Position numbers and translations under genes: made by a program
The notes under the pieces: model-generated
Told to the model about the DNA's origin: nothing
The model's database searches: none
The model's input: only the letters and a program-made list of their open reading frames with translations
Assembly: GCA_950097015.1 (NCBI GenBank)
Contig: CATNEN010000038.1
Span: forward strand, 15,934,001 to 15,998,000
Source of the DNA: Macrostomum hystrix
Lineage: Eukaryota; Animalia; Platyhelminthes
Direction: 5' to 3'
Length of the DNA: 64,000 nucleotides
Shown here: positions 3,279 through 58,202 of the stretch, in pieces
Layout of the letters: each line of letters begins with the position of its first letter
How positions within the stretch are numbered: position 1 is the stretch's first letter

Positions 3279-3885
3279 TCTTGACTGTTACTTAGTAAAG
3301 TCATGAAATATAGCCTAGTCTAGCTAGCTTTTACATAGCCGGCGAACAGGCCTAGTGTGCACTGTAGAGGAGGGGCTATCTATCGAAATAGTAGGCCTAT
3401 CTGAAAGCAAAGTTTATTATTCAGTGTAGGCGTAGGTCTAGGCTCTATCCTAAACCTTGGCCCTTTGAAAGATCTTTAATACTGTGCAGTTTGTTGGGCT
3501 TAATTTGCGCTCATATCGCTATAATATTTATTTTGTCTTTTGTCATTGCCATGTAATTTTTTGGATAACTAGCTAATTAAGTCTTGCAGCCTGACCTTGA
3601 AAAATCATTCGATTCAGATGATTTGGATGACCTTTTCAGTCCCAAAAGTTGCAATGTTTTTATATGAGCTAGGCCAAACTCTATTGTATATAGGCCTAGC
3701 TCAGCATATGACATAAAATTTATCAAAGAAGCTTAGAAGATAAAAAATTTAAGTCTATCCTCCTATCTAATCTTCCTAACTGTCTACCTATTGAGAAATA
3801 TGAACAAAAAAATTTGTTGATGATTTCATTATGTGAGTAGTCATTTTGATCAGCTAGCAGACAAAAGACAATTGATGTGAGCTAT

Positions 3886-4640
3886 TGAGGCAGGCCCAAA
3901 TTTATCGTATATTCTTAAAGTTGAATTCCCGCCAAATGCTTTTCCTCAGTTTTATATTTTTGGTTTGTTTTAATGTGTTGCACCAACCGCCCCAATTTTT
4001 GCTATAAATATAGACGCAGTTTAACCCAAAAAGCCCCAACCGGTGCCCCGTGCCCAGTTCGGAGAGCAAAAAGGAGAATAAATCTCAAAGTGTTTTTCAA
4101 TTATTTTAGAGAGGAGAAAAGCAGGTCCGTGTTAATACACAAGCCAGGAGTATTCGAAAGAATAAAGAAGGGAATAGTCATAAAAAGCAGTGGAGTGTAA
4201 AACTAAAGAGCAGAAGGGTAAATCCCGATTGGTGGAAAAGCACTGTGTGCAAAGTTGGGCAACTTCAGTCCATTGGAAGCCTTGAAAGACTGGGAACAAA
4301 CCAGAGAGCCAGACAGTTGTGAGTAAGTAGAGGAGAGGAAGAAGTGTCTTGCCGCTCGGACACTCGTGAGAACGCTACCAATTTTGGAAGGAAAGTAGCC
4401 TATCTGGCCAAGTTAAGCAATATATGCATATGTAATAAGAGGATACATAGCTAGCCTATGAAGAATAACTAAGTCATAGACAAAGGAAATTAAGAGTTAT
4501 TTCAAAGGTTAATTCAAGGTGTGAAATAAGCAATTGTTAATATTTAATAAAAGAGTATCGGTGATATTTAAACCCAAAGAGGAGAGAGCCTACGACAACT
4601 TAGTGGCAGCTGTAAGATAAAAGAAAGGAGCCCTACGACA
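3886..4640 (+). repeat. 5' LTR (755 bp)
   Basis: Begins TGAGGCAGGC and ends CCCTACGACA. No difference from the 3' copy seen by eye, and both give the same 75-aa spurious ORF. TATAAATA at about 4003, several AATAAA. Confidence 0.95.
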
Positions 4641-4643
4641 ACT

Positions 4644-4664
4644 TGGTGACAGCGGTAAAGGATT
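4644..4664 (+). promoter_or_regulatory. Primer-binding site, probably tRNA-Leu
   Basis: TGGTGACAGCGGTAAAGGATT starts 3 nt after the 5' LTR. It resembles the complement of the tRNA-Leu 3' end (TGGTGGCAGCGGTGGGATT type). Confidence 0.75.
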
Positions 4665-4710
4665 GGAATCCAGCTAAAGCACACAGTCAGTTTGAAAGTT
4701 AGATAAAGGT

Positions 4711-5610
4711 ATGGCCGCAGGAATTAATGATGCTATTGGCTTGTTAGCAGAAGAATTAAGAAATAGACTAGAATTAGGACCCATGAGACACGTAAAGATC
4801 CAAAAGTACACACCTAGCCAGGACATCAGAATTTGGCTCAAAGCATTTGATCAGAGATGCGACAATGAAGGATTAGAACAGGATGAACATAGGAAGAATG
4901 AGCTGTTAGCTAATCTAGACCTCGCGACCGCATTTGCAGCCGTTCAGCGGTTGAATCTGCCAGAAGACTTAACGTATGAGGAGTTGAAGGAAAGACTAAT
5001 CGAAAGATTCGGAAGACTAGGAAGCTCAGCCGAGTTTAGGGAGGAATTTAGAGGTAGAATGCAAGGGAGGAATGAGCCCGTTGACTCATTCGCAGATGCC
5101 TTGATTGAGTTGTCCGCGCAAGCATTCCCCAATATGAATGCAGAACAAAGGGAGGAGGAAGTAGTAGAGCAGTTCATTAAAGGAGCGAGAATCCCTTCCG
5201 ACACTAGGGAAAAGTTAATATTTGCACAGCCAGCCAGCCTGCAAGAGGCTAGAAGGATGTTGAGACGCATCGAAGCAGCGTGGCATATGTCACACAAGAG
5301 TGGAGTTCGAGTTGTTAAAGACGAGCAATTCGACGAGGATCGGAATAAGAAGATGGAGGAGACCATCGAGAGGCAGAAGTATGAAATCAATAAGCAGAAG
5401 AAGCTGATTGAAGACCTGATTCAGGAAAGAAGGAAGGCTGAATGCCAGAGGGTAACACCTCAGCCGCTCATGCAGCCGAAGACGTACCTGAAGCCGCAGC
5501 AACAGTCGAGGCCTCCGCCGACATGTTTTAACTGTAACAAAGTTGGGCATATTGCCAAGTACTGCAAGAGCTCACAGCAGCAGCAGCAGTACCGATATCA
5601 GGGAAACTGA
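4711..5610 (+). CDS. gag: Retrotransposon Gag (capsid-like plus CCHC zinc knuckle), 299 aa
   Basis: Q-x-x-x-E-x-V-x-x-F major-homology-like motif (MQGRNEPVDSF) and CFNCNKVGHIAKYC zinc knuckle. First ORF after the PBS. Confidence 0.95.
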   Translation: MAAGINDAIGLLAEELRNRLELGPMRHVKIQKYTPSQDIRIWLKAFDQRCDNEGLEQDEHRKNELLANLDLATAFAAVQRLNLPEDLTYEELKERLIERFGRLGSSAEFREEFRGRMQGRNEPVDSFADALIELSAQAFPNMNAEQREEEVVEQFIKGARIPSDTREKLIFAQPASLQEARRMLRRIEAAWHMSHKSGVRVVKDEQFDEDRNKKMEETIERQKYEINKQKKLIEDLIQERRKAECQRVTPQPLMQPKTYLKPQQQSRPPPTCFNCNKVGHIAKYCKSSQQQQQYRYQGN

Positions 5611-5674
5611 ATATCGAGGGACGAGAGTCGAGGCCGCGCCCCTCTAGTAAACCCCGATTCGAACCTCAGGCCTC
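5601..5674 (+). promoter_or_regulatory. -1 programmed ribosomal frameshift signal (G GGA AAC plus predicted H-type pseudoknot)
   Basis: X_XXY_YYZ heptamer at 5601-5607 in the gag frame just before TGA; pol is in the -1 frame. Stem 1 is GAGGG 5616-5620 / CCCTC 5640-5644. Stem 2 is GAGGCC 5630-5635 / GGCCTC 5669-5674. Confidence 0.85.
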
Positions 5675-8600
5675 TAAGAATCGGCGATACCAAGCCCAGT
5701 CGTCGAATTTGCGTAATGCACAAAAGCAATCGAGTTACCCTGCGTCAGCACCATCTGCGTCAGCACCTATTGCGTCAGCACCATCTGCGTCAGCACCATT
5801 TGCGTTAGCACCATCTGCGTTAGCACCATCTGCGTCAGCACCCATTGCGTCAGCACCATCTGCGTCAGCACCCATTGCGTTAGCCGCCGCAACATCTGGA
5901 AAATACTCAAGGACACGTGAGAATAAACGCAAAGTATTTGTTTCTAATTCTAAACTAGAACTTATTAAACCTGAAGGATTTGAAGCTGTAATTGTAGGAA
6001 AATTTAAGAATCAGGAAATTAATTTTATCCTAGACACAGGGGCTAGGAACAGCTTTTTGAGCAAATCTATTTGGTCAAAATTACTTAAGCCAGAACAGAT
6101 AAGAAGTACAGACAAGCGAGTCTCTACTTTCGACGGAACCAGAGTACAATTGGAAGGCGAGAGTTGTATTCCAGTTAGATTCGGAGACATCCAGATAGAA
6201 ATAGAATTCCTTTTGTGTGGACATGAGAGCGACAATATCTTAGGAATGGAATTTTTCCTAGGACATTGTGATAGCATTCATCTTGCTAAAGGCATGTTGA
6301 TTCTAAATGAAGGAGCAAGCATTCCTATGCAGTTCACTCATCTACCTGTAAAAGTATGCAGAGTGTATACTCAGGAGAAAGTAGTGATTCCTGCAAATAG
6401 TGCGTTGAGAATCCCAGTGAGATTGGCGAAAGATGCCGAGTGCAATTTTGGAACACCTATGACAGTGAGTATGATTGGCGAAGGCGTAAAAGCCAAAGAA
6501 TTGACAGTCGAGATGGCTCCCACTCTAGTCACAATGCGAGAAGGTTCCGCCATTGTGGAGATTGTGAATAACAATTCAGTTGAGGTGAAGCTGTCGAAGT
6601 CAACATTGGTAGGCCTAGCCAAACCAGTGAAGGCAAGTGAATTGAAATATTTCGAAGCCGAAAAAGAAGTAGTCAGTCAACCTACCGGACGAGTCAATCA
6701 GACACAGACTGTGGAAGATGCGTGGATCCATGAGGTCAAGATTGGTCAAGATCTTACCGATGATCAAAGGAAGTCAGTGATTGAATTGATGAAAGAGCAT
6801 CGTGAAGCTTTTTCACAGAATGAGTTGGATATGGGTTTAACCCATCTGATCACACATGAGATCTCACTGAAGGATGAGACTCCCGTGAGGATCCCAACTA
6901 GGAGAATACCACCCCATCTCCAAAAGCAAGTCGACACACAGTTGGATGACATGTTGGCTAAAAATTTAATCAGGCCCAGTTATTCAACTTATTCTACACC
7001 ATTAGTCATTGTGCCGAAAAAGGACGGATCCATACGGATTGTAAGTGATTTCAGAGTGTTAAACTCGAAGGTGAACTATGTTCCGTATCCGCTTCCTAAC
7101 ATTCATCAGACTTTCACCTATTTATCTGGTAGTCAGTACTTTAGTAGTCTCGATTTGAATTCTGGTTATTGGCAGGTGCCGATAAAGGAAGAACACAAGT
7201 TCATGACCGCCTTCTCTACTTTAACCCGAGGCCAGTTTGAGTATGAGGTTATGGCGCAAGGTTTGTCCAATGCCCCAGGAACCTTCCAAAGGCTCATGAA
7301 TCTTGTACTTTTAGGGATTCAACATCAATTTGCTATGTCGTATATAGACGATATAGTTACCTATTCGAAGAACTTTAATGACCACCTTTCCCATCTAAAG
7401 GAAGTGTTCAAGAGATTAATAATCGCAGGATTGAAGCTAAGGCCAAAGAAATGTAACCTTTTTCATAGAGAGTTAAAGTACTTAGGACATGTGATCAGTA
7501 CAGAAGGTATCCGTACGGATGAGACGAAGATTGAAGCAATCAAGACCTGGCCGAAGCCAAAAGATGTGAAGGAGCTACGCAGTTTCCTTGGTTTATGTAA
7601 TTACTATAGCCGTTTCATTAAAAATTATGCAGAAGCTGCCCATCCCCTTTTCCAGCTAACAAGGAAAGGAATTAAGAACTTTCAAGAGAGATGGAGCAAA
7701 GAGCATGACGAAGCGTTTGAGTCGCTAAAGAACCGGATGATGTCCACTGAAGTCTTAGCGTATCCCGAATTTGTGGATGATGAGAAGGTGAAGATGGTAT
7801 TGGATACCGATGCAAGTGATAGCCGTATTGGCGCTGTACTTAGCCAGATCCAATCAGATGGCATAGAGAGACCCATAGCTTATTTCAGCCGAGCTATGAA
7901 AGAGTCGGAAAAACGCTACCCTATCACTAGAAAAGAACTCTTAGCCCTAGTGGATGCCATGAGGCATTTCCGTTTCTACCTGTTAGGCAAGAAGTTTTTG
8001 GCAAGAACGGATCATAAGGCGATAATTTGGCTGTTAAGGCAAACAGAAGCTCAAGGAATTCTTGGCCGGTGGGTCGAGCGCCTAAACGAATTCTCGTTCG
8101 ATATAGAACACAGAAGCGGTGCAAAGAACCAGAACGCTGACAGTCTGTCAAGAAGACCAGCTGATGTCCCTGAAGCAGAGCAAGTTATTGAGCCGATAGT
8201 GCAAAGCTGCAGTGTAATGGAAGAGTCAGGACAGGAAGTTAAGGCTAATGATAGCTCATGTAGCTTGACACAGCCCCAGACTGCCCTAAGTGAAGGAGAG
8301 AAAAAGACGTTAGATCCCAATAGCAGGATCCAGTCTACTATCTCAGGACAAGGAGAGGTGAGAATTCCCAGTGAACTTGAACATGACTCCAGCATTCCGC
8401 TTCCGAGTCCAGTTCCTGAAGAATTTAATCCTATTGAGAGTGAGGATATGCTGCAAGCAACAAGTAGCAAGTGCGAGAAGTTATTGACCGATTTCTTACC
8501 CAGCCCATTGAAACGAGAGCAAATTATTGCGTCACAAAGAGATGACCCAGTAATTAAAGTGCTAATTGAATGGAAGAAATCAGGAGAGAACAATCCCCAG

Positions 8601-10256
8601 TTACCTGAAATTGTCAGCCCAGAATTGAAGAAGATGAGGAAATTCTTTGAGGATATGAAGGTAGAGAATGAGATGCTAATCATTAGCGAAGATGACAGTT
8701 GGAAAGTTGTACTGCCCCAGTCCTTGGATAAGCTAGTTCTCAGCGATCTGCATGATAGCCCACTAGCAGGACATTTGGGACGCGATAAAACAATTCAACG
8801 TGTCAGGCAGAGATTTTGGAGACCAGGATTGGTCAAAGCAGTGGAAGCTCATATCGCAGAGTGTATTCCGTGCCTGGAAAGCAAAAGAGGAAATCCGATA
8901 CAGGCGCCAGTGCAATCGTTCCCTATCAGTGAACCTTTCCATCGCCTGCATGTCGATTTTATAGGACCACTATCCAAAGAGAGCAAAAGAGGGCACAAGT
9001 ATGTCCTAACTATTGTGGATAGCACCACTCGATATCCGTTTGCATTCCCAACTAGAAATCAAAAGTCAGATACTGTGATCAAAATCTTACAGGAAAGAAT
9101 CTTCGCAGAGTATGGGCAATGTCAGTGGTTACACACAGACAATGGCAAGGCATTCGCTAGCAAGCAGTTCAAAGCTTTTTGCGAAATGTATAACGTGAAG
9201 CATACGTTTACAACACCCTACCATGCCCAAAGCAATGGATTGGTGGAGAGATTTAACAAGCAAATTAAGTCGATAGTAACTTGTCTCATTGAGAAAGATC
9301 ACAGTGATTGGGACCTTATGATCCCAGCTGCATTAGTTGCTGTCCGCACTAGTGTGAACAAAACCACAGGCTTTACTCCCCACTACCTGTTATTTGGACG
9401 GGAAGCAGTATTGCCTATGGACAGTCAAATCAGCCAACCAAAGTCATTCGCCAGTTATCCATCTTATGTGACAGAACATGCCGAACGATTGAAGATTGCG
9501 AGAGACATTGTCAAAAGAAAATTGGAGAAGGTTGTCAGTAACAGACAAGAGTCTGCGAAAAACGGCAAATTGCCTAAGACAGTCCCAGTTGGAAGTCTTG
9601 TGTTGATTAATAATCCACAGTTGAACAGCGAGGAGTCGCACAAATTTCATAGGAAAAAGAGATCAGCCTTCAGAGTAATAGAGCAAATATCAGATGTAGT
9701 ATTTCGAGTGCAAAAGGAGGAGCAAGGACAACTAGTGGGCAATGTCATGATTGTCCACAGAGACAACATAACTATTGTGCCTAATTCAACCCAAGAGGAA
9801 TTAATTAGGGGAAGCCAGGCCGCACCAGAGAAGAAAGCTAAGAAGACAGAGGTCAAAGTTAGGGGAAGCCAGCCGAAGGAGAAGGGAAGATTTGTTCTAA
9901 CAGAGGAAGATGAATCCGAAGAGGAAGAAGACAGATTAGAATGGCAATGTCATTTTAGAGAAAACCCAAGTGAAATTAATGGAGAAGATTTGGAACTAGG
10001 AGCTGAGATAGAAGTGGAGGATGAATCACACACCGAGCCTGAGGCTACGAGCAGTGAAGAGGAGAGCGAAAGCGAAGGGACAGCTGAGGGTCTGGCGACA
10101 GCCACCTCAGAAGGAGGCATGTACATTGCACAGAATGAAGAAAGGGAAGGAGTGACAAGCCGTCCGCGCAGACAAATCAGACCCCCCGCGAGGTTTGAAG
10201 GCTATTTGCAGAGGCTTGCCACCGTGTTCAGTATACTTGGGAATTTACAGATCTAG
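5601..10256 (+). CDS. pol: Pol polyprotein (aspartic protease, RT, RNase H, integrase), expressed by -1 frameshift from gag
   Basis: ILDTGA protease, SYIDDI RT, DTDAS...TDHK RNase H, HHCC (LHDSPLAGH...CIPC) and D-D-E integrase (HVDF, HTDNG, VERFN). The frame is open from the slippery site at 5601 to the stop at 10256. The ORF-track start at 5709 is a TTG. Confidence 0.97.
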   Translation, partial: GKLNIEGRESRPRPSSKPRFEPQASKNRRYQAQSSNLRNAQKQSSYPASAPSASAPIASAPSASAPFALAPSALAPSASAPIASAPSASAPIALAAATSGKYSRTRENKRKVFVSNSKLELIKPEGFEAVIVGKFKNQEINFILDTGARNSFLSKSIWSKLLKPEQIRSTDKRVSTFDGTRVQLEGESCIPVRFGDIQIEIEFLLCGHESDNILGMEFFLGHCDSIHLAKGMLILNEGASIPMQFTHLPVKVCRVYTQEKVVIPANSALRIPVRLAKDAECNFGTPMTVSMIGEGVKAKELTVEMAPTLVTMREGSAIVEIVNNNSVEVKLSKSTLVGLAKPVKASELKYFEAEKEVVSQPTGRVNQTQTVEDAWIHEVKIGQDLTDDQRKSVIELMKEHREAFSQNELDMGLTHLITHEISLKDETPVRIPTRRIPPHLQKQVDTQLDDMLAKNLIRPSYSTYSTPLVIVPKKDGSIRIVSDFRVLNSKVNYVPYPLPNIHQTFTYLSGSQYFSSLDLNSGYWQVPIKEEHKFMTAFSTLTRGQFEYEVMAQGLSNAPGTFQRLMNLVLLGIQHQFAMSYIDDIVTYSKNFNDHLSHLKEVFKRLIIAGLKLRPKKCNLFHRELKYLGHVISTEGIRTDETKIEAIKTWPKPKDVKELRSFLGLCNYYSRFIKNYAEAAHPLFQLTRKGIKNFQERWSKEHDEAFESLKNRMMSTEVLAYPEFVDDEKVKMVLDTDASDSRIGAVLSQIQSDGIERPIAYFSRAMKESEKRYPITRKELLALVDAMRHFRFYLLGKKFLARTDHKAIIWLLRQTEAQGILGRWVERLNEFSFDIEHRSGAKNQNADSLSRRPADVPEAEQVIEPIVQSCSVMEESGQEVKANDSSCSLTQPQTALSEGEKKTLDPNSRIQSTISGQGEVRIPSELEHDSSIPLPSPVPEEFNPIESEDMLQATSSKCEKLLTDFLPSPLKREQIIASQRDDPVIKVLIEWKKSGENNPQLPEIVSPELKKMRKFFEDMKVENEMLIISEDDSWKVVLPQSLDKLVLSDLHDSPLAGHLGRDKTIQRVRQRFWRPGLVKAVEAHIAECIPCLESKRGNPIQAPVQSFPISEPFHRLHVDFIGPLSKESKRGHKYVLTIVDSTTRYPFAFPTRNQKSDTVIKILQERIFAEYGQCQWLHTDNGKAFASKQFKAFCEMYNVKHTFTTPYHAQSNGLVERFNKQIKSIVTCLIEKDHSDWDLMIPAALVAVRTSVNKTTGFTPHYLLFGREAVLPMDSQISQPKSFASYPSYVTEHAERLKIARDIVKRKLEKVVSNRQESAKNGKLPKTVPVGSLVLINNPQLNSEESHKFHRKKRSAFRVIEQISDVVFRVQKEEQGQLVGNVMIVHRDNITIVPNSTQEELIRGSQAAPEKKAKKTEVKVRGSQPKEKGRFVLTEEDESEEEEDRLEWQCHFRENPSEINGEDLELGAEIEVEDESHTEPEATSSEEESESEGTAEGLATATSEGGMYIAQNEEREGVTSRPRRQIRPPARFEGYLQRLATVFSILGNLQI
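5741..5885 (+). repeat. 15-bp coding tandem repeat (ASAPS/ASAPI, about 9 copies) upstream of the protease
   Basis: TGCGTCAGCACCATC units in frame with pol. Confidence 0.9.
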
Positions 10257-10259
10257 GCA

Positions 10260-10460
10260 GAGATTGGGGTGACGCAATAGTAACACAAGGAAACCACGTG
10301 CAAGGGATAGAAAGGGAGTAGGGGTTAGCCACTTCCAGTCAATTAGGTAGGGGTTAATTGAAATCAGTAGGGAACCAATAGGATTAGAAATAAGCCAGTA
10401 TAGCCCAATAAAAATCTGAGACACAATGAAGAGTGTCAGTTTCGCGCCTATATAAACAAG
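10260..10460 (+). promoter_or_regulatory. Putative internal Pol II promoter for ORF3
   Basis: ATTGG at 10263, CCAAT at 10375 and 10405, TATATAAA at 10449-10456, about 64 nt before the ORF3 ATG. Confidence 0.6.
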
Positions 10461-10519
10461 AGCCCTGGGAACACAAAACAAACATAAGCAGAGAGAAGAA
10501 GTCATACTGACAAAGAAGA

Positions 10520-11686
10520 ATGGAGCAAGATCAAGAAGCCATAAGCGCAAGCGAATTTGAGAAGTTGTTAGAAGCTGTGACTGTAGATTTCTCGGATAAT
10601 GAGAATGTTGAGCCGGATAGAGTGAAGCAGGATAAGGAGAAAAGAGTCGATAATGACGAAGAAGATATTATTCAAGTGATCATCGATGAGTCGGAAGAAC
10701 TCGAGGCGCCATTGCGGCAGAGGACGCAACCGTCTATGGTTGGTCAGCAATCGAGGGCAAACAGCCAGAAGCGAGCTGCCACCACGATGCAAGAAGAAAT
10801 CGCGAGTAAGAGGAAACTGCCGAGTTCAAGGCTACCGGTTTTCCTCGATGCCACCGCAAGGGTAAACCAACTCCGACAGCAGTCAATCGCACCAGTGGCA
10901 GCATTGGAGAAGGCTCAAAATATGCCCACGGAGGTGGCCAGAACCATCAAAGTCATCAGTACACCAAGCCAGGAGCCAGGTCGACGAGCTGCCGGACAGC
11001 GGTCGATAGCGCCGAAGCCGATTCCGCAGCCGCAGCCACCGCCTAAGGGTCGGCACATAGCACCAAAGGCGCAGAGGGTACCAATCCAGTACCAATACAG
11101 GACAGACTTCCAGCAACAGCCGCAGCCGCAGTCGTCACAGCAGTCGCAGTCGCAGCCCTCGCAGTCGTCACAGCAGTCGCAGCCGCAGCCCTCGCAGTCC
11201 TCGCAGCCGGCACAGCCGCAGTCATCACAGCAGCAGCTGCAGCTGCAGCCGTCGCAGCAGCCGTTGCAGCAAGAGCAGCCACTGCAGCAGTCGCCACAGC
11301 CGCAGCAGCGACCAGAATCAGATGAGGACATCGATATGGAGCCCGCGGAGAATCAGGAAGAATTCGCCCGAATAATGGCGGAAATTCCTCAGGCCCAACA
11401 CGAGCATTACACGCGGCTCATCCGTCACCTGAAGGGCTACATCCTGGATGCCGGACTGTACAACAATGATCGGCGATATCCGCAGCGGGCCGCAATCTAT
11501 TCCGCTATGCGTGTTCTATGCGAGAAGTTCGCCCGGAGCCATTGTATAGCCGCCTGGAAAAGGGCTGTACAATATGCGCGAAAAGTAATCAACCGCAGTC
11601 CACTGCCGGTAAACCGCATCCCCCTCAACATTGAGGAGGTGGATGGCGAGTACGGTCGGTTGGCCCCGCAACGAGAGATTGCCTGA
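10520..11686 (+). CDS. Retrotransposon ORF3, non-env protein of unknown function (388 aa)
   Basis: Intact ATG-to-stop ORF between pol and the PPT. Acidic N-terminus, Q/S/P-rich middle, ordered-looking ~100-aa C-terminus. No signal peptide or transmembrane segment. Confidence 0.8.
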   Translation: MEQDQEAISASEFEKLLEAVTVDFSDNENVEPDRVKQDKEKRVDNDEEDIIQVIIDESEELEAPLRQRTQPSMVGQQSRANSQKRAATTMQEEIASKRKLPSSRLPVFLDATARVNQLRQQSIAPVAALEKAQNMPTEVARTIKVISTPSQEPGRRAAGQRSIAPKPIPQPQPPPKGRHIAPKAQRVPIQYQYRTDFQQQPQPQSSQQSQSQPSQSSQQSQPQPSQSSQPAQPQSSQQQLQLQPSQQPLQQEQPLQQSPQPQQRPESDEDIDMEPAENQEEFARIMAEIPQAQHEHYTRLIRHLKGYILDAGLYNNDRRYPQRAAIYSAMRVLCEKFARSHCIAAWKRAVQYARKVINRSPLPVNRIPLNIEEVDGEYGRLAPQREIA

Positions 11687-11862
11687 AGACTGTTATTTTT
11701 CTTAAAAAGGACAATTTGGTCGTGTTTTAATCGTTTTATTTGGTGTTGTATTTTACTTTTCTAAAAAATTTTTCTGCTACCCGTTTTTTGCTATCCGTTT
11801 TATTTTGTGTACGCTATTGTTACTATAAATTTTGTCACGCGTGTCTTATTCCAAAATGTATA

Positions 11863-11875
11863 TAGGGGAAGCCAG
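11863..11875 (+). promoter_or_regulatory. Polypurine tract (plus-strand primer)
   Basis: TAGGGGAAGCCAG lies immediately 5' of the 3' LTR. Confidence 0.8.
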
Positions 11876-11876
11876 T

Positions 11877-12631
11877 TGAGGCAGGCCCAAATTTATCGTA
11901 TATTCTTAAAGTTGAATTCCCGCCAAATGCTTTTCCTCAGTTTTATATTTTTGGTTTGTTTTAATGTGTTGCACCAACCGCCCCAATTTTTGCTATAAAT
12001 ATAGACGCAGTTTAACCCAAAAAGCCCCAACCGGTGCCCCGTGCCCAGTTCGGAGAGCAAAAAGGAGAATAAATCTCAAAGTGTTTTTCAATTATTTTAG
12101 AGAGGAGAAAAGCAGGTCCGTGTTAATACACAAGCCAGGAGTATTCGAAAGAATAAAGAAGGGAATAGTCATAAAAAGCAGTGGAGTGTAAAACTAAAGA
12201 GCAGAAGGGTAAATCCCGATTGGTGGAAAAGCACTGTGTGCAAAGTTGGGCAACTTCAGTCCATTGGAAGCCTTGAAAGACTGGGAACAAACCAGAGAGC
12301 CAGACAGTTGTGAGTAAGTAGAGGAGAGGAAGAAGTGTCTTGCCGCTCGGACACTCGTGAGAACGCTACCAATTTTGGAAGGAAAGTAGCCTATCTGGCC
12401 AAGTTAAGCAATATATGCATATGTAATAAGAGGATACATAGCTAGCCTATGAAGAATAACTAAGTCATAGACAAAGGAAATTAAGAGTTATTTCAAAGGT
12501 TAATTCAAGGTGTGAAATAAGCAATTGTTAATATTTAATAAAAGAGTATCGGTGATATTTAAACCCAAAGAGGAGAGAGCCTACGACAACTTAGTGGCAG
12601 CTGTAAGATAAAAGAAAGGAGCCCTACGACA
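11877..12631 (+). repeat. 3' LTR (755 bp)
   Basis: Direct repeat of 3886-4640, preceded by the PPT and followed by the CTAT duplication. Confidence 0.95.
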
Positions 12632-13085
12632 CTATATAAATAGGCCTTTTTACCATTCTTCCATTTTACTGTTACTGTTTTACTGTTTAGGCCCTTAATT
12701 TTCTCAGTTTTACCAATATTTTCTATTTATATAAAAAGTGACTTTATTGTTTAAAGTCTATTTTAGTCTAGCTAGATACAAAGAAAGTAATTTAAATCAC
12801 ACTTACAGCATAATTTTTTTTAATATATAAGAATAGAAAATACCCCTTTAATCTTATGTTCTCAGCATCTCAAGGTAGAAGATAAGGGAAAACACCCTAT
12901 ATAATTGGCAATAAAGAAATTTATTATTCTTTTTTAACTAAGAATTACTAATTTTAATATTTCAAATCATATTTCATGAATCCTCAGAGCCGTCTACAAA
13001 TACAGAGCTGTCACAGCTCTCTTCATTTTTATTTATAAAAAGCATTGCAACCAGCCCTGATAAGCTTTACACCAGAATAGCATCA

Positions 13086-16000
13086 ATGGACAGGTGTCTT
13101 GTGACCTTCTTTGGTGATGCAAGCAGTGATTCAGAAGACAATGAGATTTTGTTAAAACAGGCTACAGCTGGCACTGAGGCAGAATCGGCTGCCTTCAGTC
13201 AAGGCGGTCATACCAGGCATTCGAGCAACAGTGAAAGTGCATCCAAGAATCAAAACTCAATCAGACGATCTGAACGCCGACGATGTCGAACAGAGCGAAA
13301 CAGTGACAATCACGATATGAAAGTCAGGCATTCTGACGTTGATGACAGTTGCACTGAAAACTGGGATAGGCAAGTGATGCACTGCAGCAAGAGCTGCGGA
13401 GAGCTGCTTCCATCTAGCCTGCCACCCGAAAATGACGAAGGCAATGTTGAGTACAAGCTGAAGCTGGTTAGGCCGACCTCCTCTAGACTGGAGCATTTGG
13501 TCACACAGTTGAAGTGGCGCCTAGCGGAGGGTCAAGGCCAGGCTGTGTACGAGCTGGGCGTTGAGGACAACGGTGTGGTACTCGGTCTAACTAAAGTTGA
13601 ACTAAACGAGAGTCTGCGCACTTTGAACGCCATGTGTCGCCGGCTGAACGCCAGCTATTCTATTCTGCGCGAGCGTCAGGTGAGGGTTTTATAAACCGAA
13701 CCATTAACAAATCAAAGAAAACTAGCTGTTAGGCAACGATAGTTAAGCGATACGATATAGAATGGAAAATTATATTGTTAGAATGCGTTACAAAAATGAC
13801 GCATTGCGCGGCACTTCTAGAGGCTCTGTACAGCTGTTCAGTTCGTGGAATGAGAAGGACGACGCTACGGTATAGTGTCCTGCCCAATGACAGTTTGTTC
13901 TCTTTGGGCTGAGATTCATTCTCTCGACCTGTACTGTCATAGAGTGAGTGATAGAGGAGGATGGAAAAAATCAGGATAAGTAGTGATTACAGAACAAAGA
14001 TCAGTTTTCTGACTGGTAATGACAGAAAAAGGATATCTATAGATGACTAGTGACAAAAGAACAAGGATCAGGGGCAGGATGACTAGTGCTGACAACAAAG
14101 ATCAGTTACTAAATCTAGTCAGCATCGTATCATATACTAATTTGAGTAAAATCCGTGCATCTCAGGTTGACAATGGCACTCGCAAAGCACAAGAGATTCT
14201 CATACGCCGATTGCCAAACGACAAAATTGACCTAGTCGAAAGTCGATTAGCAGTTCTGGGAAATTTGGACGCCGGCAAGTCCACGCTGCTGGGCGTGCTG
14301 ACGCAAGGAGATCTGGACAACGGTCGCGGCCGAGCCAGGTTGAACCTGTTCCGGCATCCTCACGAAATCCAGACTGGCTACACGTCCAGTGTTAGCTCGG
14401 AGATTTTGGGATTCGACGCCAAGGGAAATCTAATCAATTATAGTGGAAACCGTTGCGTTGAGGATATTCTAGAAGAGAGTAGTAAACTTTACCGACTTAT
14501 TGATTTGGCTGGTCACATCCGGTATCAAAAGACTACACTGAGAGGCCTGATGGCTCACGATCCACATCTGGTGGCACTAGTCGTGTCTTCTGTTACTGGA
14601 CTAACAGATATGGCGCAGGAACACGCAGCATTGGCTATTGGGCTGCAGGTGAGACCGGGTGTTCTGCTAAATGGTACTCGTATATAATTGGCTGGAGGTG
14701 AGACTACTGATGATAGATAACAGATGCGGGTGTTTTTTATTTGATCGATAATTGGCTGCAGATGAGACTAGTTCTTCTGTTAATTGATAGATAATTGGCT
14801 GCAGGTGAGAACAATGATGCCTTATTCCTAAACTCGTTTATAACATCTGCAGGTGCCATTCATAATTGTGATCACAAAGATCGACCTGTGCAATCACGAG
14901 CCGGTGCTTGCCTCAGTGGAGGCCTGGTTGAAGGCAACGGGCAATAAGCGAATACCGCTCGTTGTGCGCACTAAAGATGATGCCATCACGGCTGCAGACA
15001 ATCTGCTGCAGTCGGCCGGCAGTTTGACGCCCATCTTTCTGATGTCTTGCATCACTGGCGTAGGGCTACCGCTCCTGACCGAGTTTCTGAATGTTGTTCC
15101 GGCTAATTCGCAATCGCGATCCTGGCAGCAGCAGCAGCAGCAGCTGTTGCATCAGCATCAGCAATTTGCGCAGGAGTTCTGCGTTGACAGCGTGGCCAGC
15201 TTGTCCGACGGTAAAAGTTCACAGACCTATTGGCGCTACGTTCTATCTGGCCCAGTTTTGAAAGGCCGACTAAAAGAGGGCGACCTGCTACAACTGGGAC
15301 CCGGCGTTGATGGAGTCTTTGTTCCGGTGCGTATCGCCAGTTTGAACCGGAACCGGCTATCCTGCGGCGCTGTGCAAGCCGGACACTGGGCCTCCGTCAC
15401 CGTGGAGTTGAAACTCGACGGCAGGTGAGTTTTGTTACCTGTAATTGTCTAACCAGCAAGATTTTTATTGAGATTCGTGATCTTCAGTCTTTTACGATAT
15501 ATTTCTACATTCCAAAGAATTAAATAAATTTGTTTTTCAGGATGTTTCTTAAATCTTTCACTATCAAATATTCTTGCATCAGAATCTTTCTGGAAACTTT
15601 TAGGGTCTCTCTAAAATCCTTCAGGAGCTTTCTCAAATCCTTCAGGAGCTTTCTCAAATCATTCAGGAGCTTTCTCAAATCCTCAGGAGCTTTCTCAAAT
15701 CCTTCAGGAGCTTTCTCAAATCCTTCAGGAGCTTTCTCAAATCCTTCAGGAGCTTTCTCAAATCCTTCAGGAGCTTTCTCAAATCCTTCAGGAGCTTTCT
15801 CAAATCCTTCAGGAGCTTTCTCAAATCCTTCAGGAGCTTTCTCAAATCCTTCAGGAGCTTTCTCAAATCCTTCAGGAGCTTTCTCAAATCCTTCAGGAGC
15901 TTTCTCAAATCCTTCAGGAGCTTTCTCAAATCCTTCAGGAGCTTTCTCAAATCATTCAGGAGCTTTCTCAAATCCTTCAGGAGCTTTCTCAAATCCTTCA

Positions 16001-17858
16001 GGAGCTTTCTCAAATCCTTCAGGAGCTTTCTCAAATCCTTCAGGAGCTTTCTCAAATCCTTCAGGAGCTTTCTCAAATCATTCAGGAGCTTTCTCAAATC
16101 CTTCAGGAGCTTTCTCAAATCCTTCAGGAGCTTTCTCAAATCCTTCAGGAGCTTTCTCAAATCCTTCAGGAGCTTTCTCAAATCCTTCAGGAGCTTTCTC
16201 AAATCCTTCAGGAGCTTTCTCAAATCCTTCAGGAGCTTTCTCAAATCCTTCAGGAGCTTTCTCAAATCCTTCAGGAGCTTTCTCAAATCCTTCAGGAGCT
16301 TTCTCAAATCCTTCAGGAGCTTTCTCAAATCCTTCAGGAGCTTTCTCAAATCCTTCAGGAGCTTTCTCAAATCATTCAGGAGCTTTCTCAAATCCTTCAG
16401 GAGCTTTCTCAAATCCTTCAGGAGCTTTCTCAAATCCTTCAAGAGCTTTCTCAAATCCTTCAGGAGCTTTCTCAAATCATTCAGGAGCTTTCTCAAATCC
16501 TTCAGGAGCTTTCTCAAATCCTTCAGGAGCTTTCTCAAATCCTTCAGGAGCTTTCTCAAATCCTTCAGGAGCTTTCTCAAATCATTCAGGAGCTTTCTCA
16601 AATCATTCAGGAGCTTTCTCAAATCCTTCAGGAGCTTTCTCAAATCCTTCAGGAGCTTTCTCAAATCCTTCAGGAGCTTTCTCAAATCCTTCAGGAGCTT
16701 TCTCAAATCCTTCAGGAGCTTTCTCAAATCCTTCAGGAGCTTTCTCAAATCCTTCAGGAGCTTTCTCAAATCCTTCAGGAGCTTTCTCAAATCCTTCAGG
16801 AGCTTTCTCAAATCCTTCAGGAGCTTTCTCAAATCCTTCAGGAGCTTTCTCAAATCCTTCAGGAGCTTTCTCAAATCCTTCAGGAGCTTTCTCAAATCCT
16901 TCAGGAGCTTTCTCAAATCCTTCAGGAGCTTTCTCAAATCCTTCAGGAGCTTTCTCAAATCCTTCAGGAGCTTTCTCAAATCCTTCAGGAGCTTTCTCAA
17001 ATCCTTCAGGAGCTTTCTCAAATCCTTCAGGAGCTTTCTCAAATCCTTCAGGAGCTTTCTCAAATCCTTCAGGAGCTTTCTCAAATCCTTCAGGAGCTTT
17101 CTCAAATCCTTCAGGAGCTTTCTCAAATCCTTCAGGAGCTTTCTCAAATCCTTCAGGAGCTTTCTCAAATCCTTCAGGAGCTTTCTCAAATCCTTCAGGA
17201 GCTTTCTCAAATCCTTCAGGATAAGGACCAGAATTTCTAGATTTGCTCCCAGGATATGGCTCTGATGCATACCGCTTCACTCCGTGCGAGATCACTCATA
17301 GCCTCTGCTACTCGTCTCAGGTGCTGGGGCGCCCATACTCTGCCGCGCGTAGCCGAAAGCTTCGCTCGCCGCGGTGCCTTTCTGGTCTCGTTGAACAGCC
17401 AGCCGCCGGCGGTGCTCAGCTTCAGCGCTCAGGTGATGCCGCACTCGTGCCGCAGGCAGCAACACCTGACTGGCCGATGCGACAGTGGCAGCCTGTTCAG
17501 ACCAGGCCGGAGAATCAATGTTCTCAGCGGCAGCGTCTGTCAGATGGCCATTGTTGGCAGTAAAACTAGTCTATTAAAATCCAACGTCCCTGCTGATAAC
17601 GCATCGAGCTCTAGTAGCAGCAGTGGTACCAGCAGTACAGCGCGAAAACAATCATCTGCTAGTAGTAAAAATAAGAGGCAACAGCAGCAGTGTACAGGTA
17701 GCAACAATGCCGAGCCTGCCCCGCAACAATTGATTGGTTTGCGTTTCGCTAAACAGGCCGAACTCTTACGGCCCGGAGATCGATTGGTTCTACGCGTTGG
17801 TCATCGCGTGGTGGGTGTTGGGCGAGTTCAACGAATTAACAACCTGCTGCAGAATTGA
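13086..17858 (+). CDS. GTPBP2: GTP-binding protein 2 (translational GTPase), 4 exons, about 728 aa
   Basis: Exons 13086-13679, 14166-14648, 14853-15424, 17321-17858 with GT-AG introns in consistent phase. Motifs LPPENDEGNVEYKLKL, GNLDAGKSTL, LFRHPHEIQTGYTSS, DLAGH, TKID. Confidence 0.93.
15611..17221. repeat. 21-bp minisatellite (about 76 copies) in GTPBP2 intron 3
   Basis: AAATCCTTCAGGAGCTTTCTC tandem array, nearly homogeneous. Confidence 0.98.
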
Positions 17859-21764: not shown

Positions 21765-22166
21765 ATGGCACAGAAGCATCTAATGACAAACGTGAACATG
21801 CTCTACGACAGTCTAATGTCAACTGGGCATGTGCACAGCTGCGCCCTGCTGTCCAGAGCCGATGGCTCAGTACTAGCCAGCAGCGTTGGCTATAGCCCTG
21901 CTCCAGAGCAGCTGCAGGTCGTCCTGGACGCCTTCGCCAGTCCTGCCGAGGCCAGAAAGAATGGCGCCGCTTTTGAAGGCCGCGACTACAAGGTGATGCG
22001 GGCGGACAAGAACTCGGTGTACGCCAGGGCTGGCAAGAAGGGCCTAGTGGCGGTCCGAACCAATGGACACGTCATTCTAGCCACCTACGCGGACGCAATG
22101 TGCCCAGCTGTGTGCATCGAGGCCTGCGAGAAGCTGGGCGAGTATCTCAGATTGAAGGACAAGTAG
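21765..22166 (+). CDS. Profilin (profilin-4-like), intronless, 133 aa
   Basis: LMSTGHVHSCALL...DGSVLASS...G-x-x-FEGRDYKVMRADKNSVYA...EACEKLGEYL profilin pattern. ATG in GCCATGG context. Confidence 0.88.
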   Translation: MAQKHLMTNVNMLYDSLMSTGHVHSCALLSRADGSVLASSVGYSPAPEQLQVVLDAFASPAEARKNGAAFEGRDYKVMRADKNSVYARAGKKGLVAVRTNGHVILATYADAMCPAVCIEACEKLGEYLRLKDK

Positions 22167-37358: not shown

Positions 37359-39282
37359 TTAGGCTTTCTCTTTTTTAGCAACTTTTGCAGCCGTCGTCGA
37401 TGCAGACGAAGTTGGCGGCACAGGCGGTGGATGCGCCGGCCTCTGCGGTTGCTGCTGCTGAGGCGGCATCGGAGGCGGCTGCTGCTGCTGCTGCATCTGG
37501 CTATAGTAGGCCGCGCTGTACTTATTGTACCACTCCATATATTCAGCATAGTACTTCTGGTATGCCGGATCGCTATACGACGGCATATGCGGCGCAGCCG
37601 GTATGCCCCCAGCCACTGCCGGATAGTCCATCTTGGCGGACTTGGCCGCGGTTGGTCCGGCAGTGGCAGCTGCTGGCTGGCTAGAGTTGGCGCCCTCTTT
37701 GCCCCAGCCCAGTTTAGCTGAGAAGCCGCCGATTGTTGCGCCGTGCATCGCCACAATGGCCTGGGTGGCAGCGTCGTGACTTTCGAAGCGTACAAATGCG
37801 AAGCCTTTGTCTTCGTGCACTTTTACATCCTGAATGGTGCCGAATTGATTGAAATGCTCACGAATCAACGAATCGGTCAGGCCGTGTTGAATACCGCCAA
37901 CGTACACCGAGGTGTTGTACAGCGTGGTCTCATTGTACACATCGTCGTAGTTTCGCTTCATTGGGCGTCGCCTTCCAGCCCCATCGCCGGAGGCGCCGTT
38001 ACCGTTGCCACTCCAACTGCCGCCGCTACCACTGCCGCCTCCGGCGCTGCCACCTGGATTATTGCGTCGGCTAGCCTAAAATTAAAATTACAGTTTTTTC
38101 TTCGATTGAAAAATCAATAAAGAATCGCAGATCTATCAAGCATCACAGATCTATTAAGCACTGTAGATCAATCAAGCACTGTAGATCAATCAAGCACTGT
38201 AGATCAATCAAGCACTGCAGATCTATCAAGCACTGCAGATCTATCAAGCACTGCAGATCTATCAAGCACTGTAGATCTATCAAGCACTGCAGATCTATCA
38301 AGCACTGCAGATTTATCAAGCACTGCAGATCAATCAAGCACTGCAGATCTATCAAGCACTGCAGATCTATCAAGCACTGCAGATCTATCAAGCATCTAGT
38401 AGATCTAGCCAGGAACCTACCCAGGAAACGCGCATCGGTTTAAATCTGAGCAGATTGCCATTCTCAGCCGCTATAGCCGCATTAGCATCCGGCTCGTTCT
38501 CGTAGGTAAGAAAGGCGTAGGTCTTGAAGCCGCCATCCTGATGACGAATAATCTTGCACTCTAGAATCGGTCCGTAGGGTACAAACACATCCATAATTTC
38601 GCTCTCCTCAATGTCTGGCACCAAATCGCCGACAAACACATGCGAGCCCTTAGACGGATCGGGCTTAGCACCGGGCGCAGTGGCCCAATTGACTCGCAGC
38701 TCGCGACCCATCAGGGTGATATGATTCATGGCTGTTAGGGCTACCTATAATATTTAACAGGTCGTTGAGTCTGGAGTTTGATAGGACAATAAAGCTCTTT
38801 ACAAAGGTAGAATATAGAAACAATTAACGACATCTAGTCCACCTAGACTAGATGCACACAGTCTAAACAGCTGATGCTGGACTGTGCGTGTTGTGTTGTT
38901 TCTGAACAATGTCAATAACAATGTAACATTCTTTTAATAAATTAAGAATGAAAGAGTCAGTTCAATTGGCTCTAAACTGAGCCCGAAGGTATAAAAAAAT
39001 CTCCGCCATGTTGATTTGAGATCCTACCTGGGCCTGCTGATGATTGCCCAGCTCCATGAAAGCGTAATTATCCGATCCGGGATTGCCGCCGCGAATAATT
39101 TTACACGCCAGGCATTCGCCAAATTGGGCAAACACGGCCACTAGAATCTGTTCCGTGCAGTCCGGCGCTAGATTACCAACGTACAGAACGCGCTTCTCGG
39201 CTGTGCCGTTTGGCGAAGGATTTTGACCGCACGGCCCGGTTGGCTGCACTACGGGATAGCCAGGCGGTGGCATCTGGTACAT
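37359..39282 (-). CDS. TIA-1/TIAR-like RNA-binding protein (3 RRMs plus Q/Y/P-rich tail), 3 exons, about 431 aa
   Basis: Exons 39282-39028, 38744-38421, 38075-37359. LYVGNL, RELRVNWAT, HVFVGDL, NTSVYVGGI...KGFAFVRFESHDAATQAIV...WGKE. Confidence 0.88.
38128..38400. repeat. 18-bp minisatellite in intron 2 of the TIA-1-like gene
   Basis: CAGATCTATCAAGCACTG, about 15 copies. Confidence 0.95.
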
Positions 39283-46285: not shown

Positions 46286-48505
46286 ATGCAGCAGCAGCAG
46301 CAGCAGCAGCGGCGCAGGTTCTGGAGCAACCAGCTTGATTTCATAAAGCGCGTTGCCCTGCCAGCGATAATGAAGCTGCCAAACTCCTGGCCCTTTAAGT
46401 CTCCCGTGGATCCAGTGAAGCTTCAAATACCAGATTATCCCAACATTGTGCTTAAGCCAATGGATTTAAACACCGTTAAGAATCGACTAAATAGTGGCAA
46501 AGTCTACCAATCTGGTCAGGAGTGCATCGATGATATCAATGGCATCTTTCTCAATTGTTTTGTATTTAACGAGCCTGGCGATGATGTAGTATTCATGGCT
46601 GAAGAGGTCGAAGCCGTGTTTCGCGACAAGATGCGCAATTATCCTACTGTTGAGCATGAGATTGTCACCGATAAGCATCAGAGGGCGCCTTCTACTTCAT
46701 CGCAGTCGGACTCTGTTCCAGTAGCAGCCGCTGTAAAGCGCAAGGCTTCGATGTCCGATGCCGACACAACTTCAGCTTCGGCTGCGTCGGCATCAACAGC
46801 TGGCGGCGGCGCCGGCTCAGTGTGGCCGCTTAGCCAGCTGCAGCCGGCTAATTCTCGTGAACCAACCGGTCGGGATATAAAAAAGCCGAAACGCGAACCG
46901 GTTGTCAATAGCAACGGCACTGCTGGTGGCTTCGCGTCTGACGAAATGCGCCAATGCTCCGCTCTGCTGCGCGATGTCAGTTCCGCTAGGCAGAAAGCTA
47001 TCAACTGGCCATTCTTAGAGCCCGTTGATGTTGTAGCACTGGGTCTGCACGACTATTTTGACATCGTTAGCCAGCCAATGGATTTGAGCACTATGCGCAA
47101 GAAGATTGACTCCGGCCAGTACGCCGATAAAGAAGCATTCGCCGCCGACTTTCATCTGATGATTGACAACTGCTTGAAATACAATTCGCCGGATTCTGAG
47201 GTGCACAGACTAGGCAAGGAGCTGTCCAAGTTCTTTGTGGATCACTATAACCGAGTGTTCGCTAGTCATTCTTCAGCGGCTTCCGCTAGTGCCGTTGTAT
47301 CTCCGGCTTCTTCTGCCACATCGCCAGCGACTAAGACTGTCGCTGCTGCTACGGTGGGCAATGGAAAACTATCCTTAGCCGACGTGAACAAAGTCACTGA
47401 GCTGTCTGTTAAGGTTGAGCAACTCTATTCTCAGGTAAGTATTAATTACGAGAGACAAAAAATCTTACTTGACTTAAACATTCGCAAATGGAAAACTGCA
47501 ACAATGATGACTAAACTGCGTGTCATTTGACTGGTCAGTGAAATATATAATTTTCTGATCAGATTGATTTAATTATTATTGCTTGGTCTGAGCTGCAGAA
47601 CCGTTTCTTTAAGTAATGAACAAGTTCTTTAGGGTATAGCTGTATGTATGTATTATTTCCTAATTTCCCCGGAAAATTCAGGATATTGTTTCTCAGGCCT
47701 ATTATCTCTGAATATTCAGGAACACTAGGTTACGAATAATTCAGTGTAGTTTCCTGAGCTCTCGCAGCTTCGCATCATCGCTACTTGATGGTACTACTGT
47801 CATGCTCTGACATTGATTCAAATTTAACTGCAGATGACTGCCTGCATTGGCGAGCTGCGAACTCTAGTGGCGGCCACCATTGGTAGTAATCATCATCATC
47901 CGGCTACCTCAACTCCGAGTACTACGACTGCCAAGAAGGCGCGAACTAGCAGCGGCGGCGGTCGTCAGAGCAAAGCGCAACAACAGCAGCAGCCGCAGCA
48001 GCAACCGCCGCCAGCGCCGTCGACTCAGCCGGCCGCTCAGCATACGCCGGCTCAGGTTTTAACACCGGCAGCTAGGAAGGCGGTGCCTGCCGGTCAGAAA
48101 CGGGGTCCGAATCGCAAATCTGCCGCCGTCGCAGCCGCTGCTCCCGCCTCCGTTGCTGCCGCGCCTGCAGGCGGTAGCAGCGGCTGGGAAGCCAACGGTG
48201 GAAGTGGCGCTTATCACCAGGCGCAGCAGACCGCCGCTGCTTCGGCCGCCGTAGCCGCCGCATCCCGGCCAATGAGCTACGATGAGAAGCGCCAATTATC
48301 GTTGGATATTAATAAACTGCCCGGCGAAAGATTGGGCCGCGTTGTCCAAATCATTCAACAGCGGGAGCCTAGCCTCCGCGACTCTAATCCCGATGAGATT
48401 GAAATCGACTTTGAGACCCTGCAACTGGGCACACTCAGAGAGCTCGAAGCCTACGTTAGATCAGTTCTGCAGGCCTCGCCACCGGCTCCTCAGCCGGCTC
48501 CGCCC

Positions 48506-48536
<31 letters not shown>

Positions 48537-57058: not shown

Positions 57059-57667
57059 TACTCAGCAACAGCTAAAACCCCCCCAAACTCACGCTGTCAC
57101 ACGGGCACAAAAGTTAAGCAATGTCTTTAATTCTAGTCTCAGTATCGTGTGTAGGAACCACGAGCATGCAAAAGTGCCGTGACTCGTCGTGGCATCCTGA
57201 TCACCAGCCGGTTGATGAACTCTTGGGGCAGCTGCTGCCAGGCATTCAGCACCGCCAGTCGCAACTGTTCAGCATTCTGTGGGGCATCCTGCTGAACTCT
57301 TCGCTTTACAAAGTCCCAGACATGCTCGATGGGGTTCATGTCTGGAGACTTTGACGGCCAGTTCAATGTGCGAATGCCGAGCTGCTCCTTCAGCAGCTGC
57401 ACGTGTGCTGCTCGATGTGGCGCAGCGTTGTCGTCTTGAAGCATGCAGTTCTGCGGGCCGCCAAAGGTTGTTGTAGCAAATGGCAGAAACTGCTGCTGTA
57501 GCAGCTCTGCATAGGTCTGCCCACCCCCTCCCCAAATCCCCCATGCCGCACTTTGCGCTCGCGTCTGGCGGCTGCAGCCTTCACACATTTCTGAGTCACC
57601 GATGGCATACAAAACTTTTGGGCCGTGTGACAACGTGAGTTGGGGGGTTTTTAGCTGTTGCTGAGTA
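57059..57667 (-). mobile_element. Internally deleted Tc1/mariner (DD34E) DNA transposon
   Basis: ~55-bp terminal inverted repeats (TACTCAGCAACAGCTAAAACCCCCC... / ...GGGGGGTTTTTAGCTGTTGCTGAGTA) with TA on both sides. Transposase C-terminus QDDNAAPH...WPSKSPDMNPIEHVW has 34 residues between D and E. Confidence 0.92.
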
Positions 57668-58202
57668 TAGTCTTCCATTGTCACTCTAACTACTGTCACT
57701 TTACACACTTAACCTGAGTCTCTCTCTTCATATATTTTGCCATTAACAAGTGTTACAATTCATCCTAATACGGTCAATTATTTGTGCACCTCGATTGTCA
57801 ATAACTCAACAAATTAAACTAGCTCGTATTTACTTTCTCATATTTACCATAACAACGCTTTTATTTGGTAAATTCTTCATGCGAGAATTTCTGGCCCTTT
57901 TAAATTAGGCATAATTTACTTTCTAGGCGCGTTTCACACAATTTGGTCCTGAATTGAACAAATTACTACCATCAAATTAGCCCTTGATTGTGATTTACCC
58001 GACACTTTGTCGATTGTAGGTTATATAGATCTACTAGAACTTTGTAGATTTCAATTTCTCTATACTACACATTCAAATATTCTCTGATGATCTCAACATT
58101 TTTTTCTTTTAATCCTACAGTTTAATCATTCCTTCAACAACATGTTGCGTTAATAATTGTCTACTTCTAGTGCGAATCTTAAATATAAAAACAAATCCTT
58201 GC

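Follow-up and report, generated by a model that had tools for sequence, protein, structure and literature searches.

The 64,000-nucleotide stretch of Macrostomum hystrix DNA analysed here (the window) contains, at positions 3886-12631, a complete and intact Ty3/Gypsy LTR retrotransposon. The insertion is very recent, and its two LTRs are identical. Between pol and the 3′ LTR the element carries a third gene, ORF3, which is not env. ORF3 shows signs of being a protein-coding gene under purifying selection. The explanation that fits best, and is put forward tentatively, is that ORF3 is a selected third gene transcribed from an internal promoter and encoding a predicted nuclear protein that raises or protects the element RNA.

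Architecture of the element

The element is flanked by a 4-bp target-site duplication and consists of the following parts:

3882..3885 (left) and 12632-12635 (right), unstranded: target-site duplication CTAT, 4 bp
3886..4640, forward strand: 5′ LTR, 755 bp, TG...CA, identical to the 3′ LTR
4644..4661, forward strand: primer-binding-site-like stretch, beginning with TGG, 3 nt past the LTR
4711..5610, forward strand: gag, 299 aa, with a zinc knuckle
5601..10256, forward strand: pol frame, -1 relative to gag, unbroken, with protease, RT and RNase H as well as integrase
10257..10519, forward strand: spacer between pol and ORF3, 263 nt, candidate internal promoter
10520..11686, forward strand: ORF3, 388 aa, sense, its ATG with A at -3 and G at +4
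11687..11876, forward strand: T-rich 3′ untranslated stretch, 46% T, with a short purine tract at its end before the 3′ LTR
11877..12631, forward strand: 3′ LTR, 755 bp, with AATAAA at 12068 and 12152

Pfam recognises gag followed by protease-RT-RNase H-integrase (zf-CCHC, Asp_protease_2, RVT_1, RT_RNaseH, Integrase_H2C2, rve). Access to pol would be gained by a -1 frameshift, since a slippery-type GGGAAAC at 5601-5607 precedes the gag stop and pol lies in the -1 frame. The primer-binding-site-like stretch matched no table entry; it is presumably of the tRNA-Leu type. The LTR contains a donor-like GTGAGT at 4319.

A TATA-like site is present in the LTR at 4003, and one transcript contig starts at 4038, although a start is not provable from contigs; with such a start, U3 would be only about 150 bp long and U5 unusually long. 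At the 3′ end of the LTR (4575-4670 and 12566-12631), the last bases recur as a degenerate tandem copy together with a primer-site-like stretch. This copy sits about 45 nt upstream of the true LTR end, in a region where sibling contigs vary. In the pol frame directly before the protease, a 15-nt tandem repeat (5740-5895) encodes SAPSA, SAPIA and SAPFA units. The integrase tail (9780-10256) is long, acidic and of low complexity, as in the M. lignano relatives.

Relatives of pol and transcript contigs

The initial annotation had viewed the element against Gypsy-type errantiviruses. This framing fits poorly: the nearest relatives of pol are elements of Macrostomum lignano, and non-env third genes have already been described in Ty3/Gypsy elements. 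Among 908 matches the closest are M. lignano proteins, 71 and 53% identical. These two, BOX15_Mlig011037g1 and Mlig004203g3, group with this pol (support 1.0) in a tree of RT-RNase H sequences that had 119 rows and contained no named clade references. Mlig014245, Mlig002862 and Mlig010552 are further M. lignano relatives. Integrase precedes RT in at least 15 of the pol matches, and PF02023, which we take to be SCAN and also Gmr1-like, was given for 9 out of 120. The present element has the usual RT-integrase order and nests with none of the integrase-first or PF02023 matches in this tree without named references. The integrase alignment yielded no relatives with flanking sequence. The nearest pol relatives belong to the group of M. 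lignano Ty3/Mdg4 elements (PMC12801592); the term ORF does not occur in the main text of that paper.

The stretch was found in four public runs (X1-X4). In all four, a loose 5′ end occurs at 12987, the acceptor of the neighbouring GTPase gene, and its letters are found in the M. lignano spliced leader, as given in the accessible text of PMC5173321. The runs, which all come from one study, are taken to hold RNA contigs, a reading drawn only from this spliced-leader end. In the commonest contigs, the central part of gag-pol differs from the window by about 0-2%, and the LTR and the start of gag by about 7-8%. One X4 contig crosses the junction between the left flank and the LTR (3429-3948) without any difference. 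Organism A therefore has exactly this insertion, its junction being either read through or carried as DNA.

The ORF3 product

The intact 388-aa frame that had been annotated after pol was confirmed at 10520-11686. In 500 base shuffles no stop-free frame reached this length (longest 294), and the reverse strand of the region has 10-11 stops per frame. The product is devoid of a signal peptide and of a transmembrane helix, because the maximal 19-residue hydropathy is 0.55 and only 2 Cys and one N-x-S/T sequon are present; nor is there a Cys-rich ectodomain. With membrane features absent and no Pfam family recognised, the annotation of a third gene other than env holds. No similarity to the Gag of the same element was found (best E 0.62).

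Every motif and region that had been listed from the translation is present:

10520..10705, forward strand: acidic N-terminal region, residues 1-62, pI 4.05
10880..11074, forward strand: three IAP(K) motifs, at residues 123, 163 and 180
11111..11317, forward strand: Q/S/P low-complexity tract, predicted disordered, about residues 198-266
11342..11596, forward strand: predicted four-helix domain, residues 275-359, helix 4 having a net charge of +6

In addition, the basic patch SKRK is found at residues 96-99, where it may act as a weak nuclear signal.

ORF3 had been described as richer in GC and CpG than gag-pol. This is correct for ORF3 overall, with a GC content of 0.56 versus 0.47 in gag and 0.44 in pol, and a CpG observed/expected ratio of 0.97 versus 0.74 and 0.60, respectively. 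It does not apply to the first 120 codons, which are gag-like (GC 0.49), the excess of GC being confined to the 3′ two-thirds. Codon usage is likewise divided, with a score of +0.16 per codon over the last 122 codons and of -0.02 over the first 120. For reference, scores ranged from +0.04 to +0.20 in 12 host ORFs, the ends of which may contain intron read-through, and from -0.02 to -0.20 in 14 blocks of gag/pol. Thus, of the proposal that ORF3 was captured from another source, the host-like codon usage of the 3′ half is in favour, but no donor was found. This codon usage would fit capture or a different selective regime.

Sibling elements and selection on ORF3

At least two sibling types are represented in the contigs, one of them close to the window. 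The divergent sibling is a single contig of 3056 nt. It shows 49 differences over 2471 nt spanning pol, spacer and codons 1-35 of ORF3, then replaces 247 nt by 241 unalignable letters, in frame, and past this replacement differs at 53 positions over 255 nt. A second contig covering the C-terminal domain has 88 differences over 475 nt. The divergence between siblings is thus about 20% in ORF3 and about 2% in pol, and the identity switches sharply near 10570-10620.

Among 40 of the 172 rows of differences, 33 fall in ORF3; two beside compensating gaps were dropped. The remaining 31 change 26 codons, 15 of them synonymously; 20 are at third positions and none creates a stop. The dN/dS ratio is 0.18 over codons 161-192 and 0.17 over codons 269-304 (68 codons, 29 of the 172 difference rows), these windows being assumed complete and biased to the alignable parts, and the siblings being pooled from one study. 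About 17 of the 29 changes are synonymous, compared with an expected fraction of 0.235-0.288 (p from 5e-5 to 0.003, depending on transition bias and rounding). Motifs 2 and 3 of the IAPK type carry no amino-acid change among the listed differences of the divergent sibling, and three synonymous changes lie in or beside motif 3. The contigs list indels at 11615-11635, some of which are not multiples of three, and the last 20 or so codons vary; therefore the sequence past helix 4 is variable within the family.

ORF3 is retained in all sibling types seen. Retention and dN/dS had been proposed as a check of the annotation; in the transcript contigs, which give dN/dS over 68 codons, both agree with ORF3 behaving as a gene under purifying selection.

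The divergence of both ORF3 and the LTR, set beside that of central gag-pol, raises the idea that ORF3 and the LTR form modules on a shared pol, in contigs that do not phase the ORF3 type with the LTR type. Plain linkage after recombination explains it as well.

Predicted fold and search for relatives

The model of full-length ORF3 was unusable (pLDDT 46.6). When residues 271-374 were submitted alone to single-sequence AlphaFold2, a four-helix bundle was predicted with a pLDDT of 79, reached by two of the five models (the others at 43-55), and a pTM of 0.73. A soluble helical C-terminal domain, as initially proposed, is thus predicted for residues 275-359. Residues 291-366 have a pI of 10.5.

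No clear structural match to an env protein or a described accessory ORF emerged at the thresholds set. With the 104-residue C-terminal domain, Foldseek returned nothing at E ≤ 0.001 and VIA nothing at Z ≥ 8, a result that neither makes the fold new nor excludes a viral fusogen family. The best VIA hit, AFV1 ORF140 (Z 7.2, r.m.s.d. 3.6, 78 residues), was rejected, as it ties with unrelated helical proteins and is within the background. A weak match of the domain to Med28 (E 0.47) was also rejected.

Sequence searches were likewise negative. Pfam gave no family for whole ORF3, and none for the C-terminal domain at E ≤ 10. HMMER found no match to the C-terminal domain at E ≤ 0.001 among 1.84 billion representatives. 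Among proteins of 213-679 aa, none of 87 candidates was a homologue of this domain and none of 849 a homologue of the N-terminal half. No relative of either half was found in the ESM Atlas, and none of ORF3 among PDB sequences, in metagenome and viral contigs, in 133 retrieved proteins or elsewhere in the window. An exact look-up of the sequence was blank. The literature search retrieved no account of an IAPK motif, and no such third gene in a gypsy element of Macrostomum or another flatworm; the classification of M. lignano LTR elements by Biryukov et al. 2020 could describe extra ORFs.

Candidate promoter and route of expression

The spacer of about 260 bp had been annotated as carrying CCAAT boxes and a further sequence 64 nt before the ATG. 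It measures 263 nt and contains CCAAT at 10375 and 10405 and the TATA sequence TATATAAA at 10449-10456, 63 nt before the ATG. It also contains CACGTG at 10295 and a 9-codon upstream ORF at 10426-10455, ahead of the predicted start. No ATG occurs between the TATA box and the start of ORF3. The T-rich stretch that resembles a 3′ UTR is found after ORF3 as annotated (46% T).

The spacer site is the only TATAWAW of the internal region upstream of the ORF3 end. A TATA box alone is unremarkable, being found in 9.3% of spacer shuffles. Its combination with two upstream CCAAT boxes occurred in 0.03% of 20000 spacer shuffles and at one of the 67 TATAWAWR sites of the window, in a test framed post hoc, with the site already seen. 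The spacer diverges by only about 2% between siblings, so that finding its TATA and CCAAT boxes intact does not testify to selection. It does not duplicate the LTR, with which its longest match is 9 nt, and no canonical heat-shock element was found in either. From these motifs, an internal promoter in the spacer is judged likely.

In all four runs, contigs run across the spacer. They fit a full-length RNA and are silent on a second promoter, as contigs cannot reveal transcription starts and drop rare forms. A joint from the LTR donor to ORF3 was absent from the six joints listed over the whole element in four sets of contigs. A 485-nt contig, 95% like ORF3 at 10519-10892, has 111 extra letters located upstream of 10519 by the coordinates of the record. 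At 85% likeness, these could not be joined to any part of the element; the simplest reading is that of a third sibling with a diverged spacer.

Comparison with known systems

Every single feature of the ORF3 arrangement has a precedent, and non-env third genes, including some with their own promoter, are known in Ty3/Gypsy elements. Comparisons are made with the accessible parts of the published descriptions. One precedent, among the additional ORFs of plant Ty3/gypsy elements, is gene23 of the maize element Grande, a non-env gene between pol and the 3′ LTR, without relatives, with its own promoter, nuclear, and of unknown function (PMC7264820). ORF3 shares with it the non-env nature, the position and the lack of detected relatives. 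However, gene23 is antisense and belongs to a plant element; ORF3 is sense and belongs to an animal element, and its promoter and nuclear location are only predicted. In the Oikopleura elements Tor3b/4b, an internal promoter drives a sense env gene after pol (PMC4402516). These are also animal Ty3/gypsy elements with a spacer past pol and a sense third gene, the internal promoter being a candidate in the case of ORF3. The third gene of Tor encodes a transmembrane Env glycoprotein, whereas ORF3 has no membrane features.

CERV, encoded by Cer1 of C. elegans, is a 517-aa protein made from a spliced RNA with exons shared with gag; it contains a Cys loop as well as a G-like domain, and its role is the export of genomic RNA (PMC10309623). 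Like ORF3, it is a fast-diverging orphan of an animal LTR element that combines one or more folded domains with flexible linkers; the nuclear location of CERV is only predicted for ORF3. Compared by description, ORF3 differs in being a separate single ORF after pol, with 2 Cys and a small domain predicted to be all-helical. Among invertebrate Ty3/gypsy elements, Juno and Vesta of bdelloid rotifers likewise have ORF3s other than env in the env position, which encode a GDSL esterase, a DEDDy exonuclease or transmembrane proteins (PMC5408684). These are recognisable enzymes or membrane proteins, whereas the flatworm ORF3 matches no Pfam family.

A similar layout is found outside retrotransposons. 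The Tas/Bel1 protein of foamy viruses is a transactivator. Its accessory gene, at the 3′ end, is preceded by an internal promoter (PMC7828637). The likeness lies in this arrangement of promoter and accessory gene, and the acidic region and basic patch of ORF3 would fit a transactivator. A foamy virus is however a vertebrate retrovirus with an env gene, and no match of ORF3 to Tas was found in sequence or fold.

Possible function of ORF3

It is predicted that ORF3 probably belongs to the class of nuclear regulators. In the mechanism preferred, if tentatively, a subgenomic mRNA would start near 10480, with a leader of about 40 nt free of upstream ATG, and would end at the poly(A) site shared with the 3′ LTR. 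Such an mRNA would be needed because a ribosome on the full-length RNA must pass gag, pol and the upstream ORF. Through its basic helical domain the protein would then bind the DNA, the chromatin or the nascent RNA of the element, and through its IAPK motifs it would attract a host factor. Its disordered arms, acidic and Q-rich, would serve as activation or scaffold regions, and the net effect would be more element RNA.

RNA export, or some other role, would suit basic helices and Q-rich tracts just as well. ORF3 could act post-transcriptionally, in the manner of CERV or Rev, by binding unspliced genomic RNA and aiding its nuclear exit or its delivery to particles. This is doubtful, though not far-fetched: a basic helical domain with disordered arms suits RNA binding, and unspliced element RNA may need protection, given the strong donor-like site at 4319 in the leader and a host that trans-splices. 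CERV (PMC10309623, accessible text), which is nuclear, diverges fast and is an orphan belonging to an LTR element, is a model for such a role, but ORF3 lacks its splicing, gag-shared exons, Cys loop and G-protein-like domain, and Pfam recognises no RNA-binding family in it. The fast divergence could instead reflect conflict with the host, ORF3 being a cytoplasmic, granule-forming protein that counters piRNA silencing. The contrast of about 20% nucleotide divergence in ORF3 with about 2% in pol, the unalignable 247-nt part, the long low-complexity tract and the conserved short repeated motif all agree with this proposal. Yet the alignable parts are under purifying, not positive, selection, the identity switch near 10570-10620 is equally explained by recombination between old subfamilies, and no likeness to a known suppressor was found, so that it is considered unlikely. 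A bolder extension of the preferred reading is speculative and similarly unlikely. It holds that ORF3 is a transactivator or anti-silencer whose four-helix fold is undescribed and whose host-recruiting IAPK motif is new, and that its strongly diverged alleles, along with the LTR type belonging to each, recombine onto a pol that is nearly identical, making cognate regulator-LTR pairs as in complex retroviruses.

Other readings concern the route of expression, the sign of the effect, or the very existence of a function. A functional ORF3 might be expressed env-like from a spliced LTR transcript, the TATA and CCAAT boxes being incidental; this overlaps with the functional readings above. The donor-like GTGAGT at 4319, an acceptor-like TTTACAG near 10250, the AG directly before the ATG and the contig with 111 unaligned letters upstream of 10519 are compatible with it. 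But none of the six listed joints fits, the 111 letters could not be joined to the element, the AG at 10517-10518 lacks a pyrimidine tract, and an acceptor at 10250 would include the upstream ORF, which makes this route distinctly unlikely. ORF3 could also restrain the element, as a repressor or copy-number control. Purifying selection leaves the sign of the effect unspecified, and LTR elements with self-restricting products are known, such as Ty1 with p22. Nevertheless, ORF3 resembles Gag in nothing detectable (best E 0.62), unlike p22-type inhibitors, and its acidic region looks more like that of an activator, and this reading is held to be very unlikely. The view of ORF3 as a recently captured host fragment or open frame, a passenger without function, is hardly credible and already largely refuted. 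It would account for the host-like codon usage of the 3′ half and the indels in the last 20 or so codons among copies, and CAG-rich tracts easily stay open (when the last 122 codons were shuffled, the frame was open throughout in 31 of 500 cases). It is contradicted by the dN/dS of about 0.18, the in-frame length change, the retention in all sibling types and the predicted folded domain.

LTR retrotransposons carry non-env third genes for which hardly any function is known. The question addressed by the preferred reading, that of a selected nuclear regulator with its own promoter, is whether an envelope-less animal retrotransposon regulates itself through a dedicated protein from a second promoter, like complex retroviruses. 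The element is very recent, intact and transcribed, and belongs to a genus with transgenesis and RNAi, in which an LTR reporter has already been used (PMC12801592, accessible text); self-regulation is thus directly testable. The predicted orphan helical domain and the conserved IAPK motif provide handles toward a host partner.

Neighbouring sequence in the window

The element lies about 356 nt upstream of the trans-splice acceptor of the GTPase gene (12987/12988; interval 12632-12988), in the same orientation. Given this position, its 3′ LTR could feed transcripts into that gene, which we take to be GTPBP2-like. Exons of the GTPase gene are separated by a tandem array (15515-17270) in which a 21-bp unit is repeated about 75 times, nearly perfectly, and which generates long spurious ORFs on both strands. 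Host genes at 21765-22166, 37359-39282 and 46286-49702 presumably encode a profilin, a TIA-1-like RRM protein and a BET double-bromodomain protein, respectively. An ORF of 179 aa is present on the minus strand at 57139-57678 and is presumed to be the catalytic part of a Tc1/mariner transposase.
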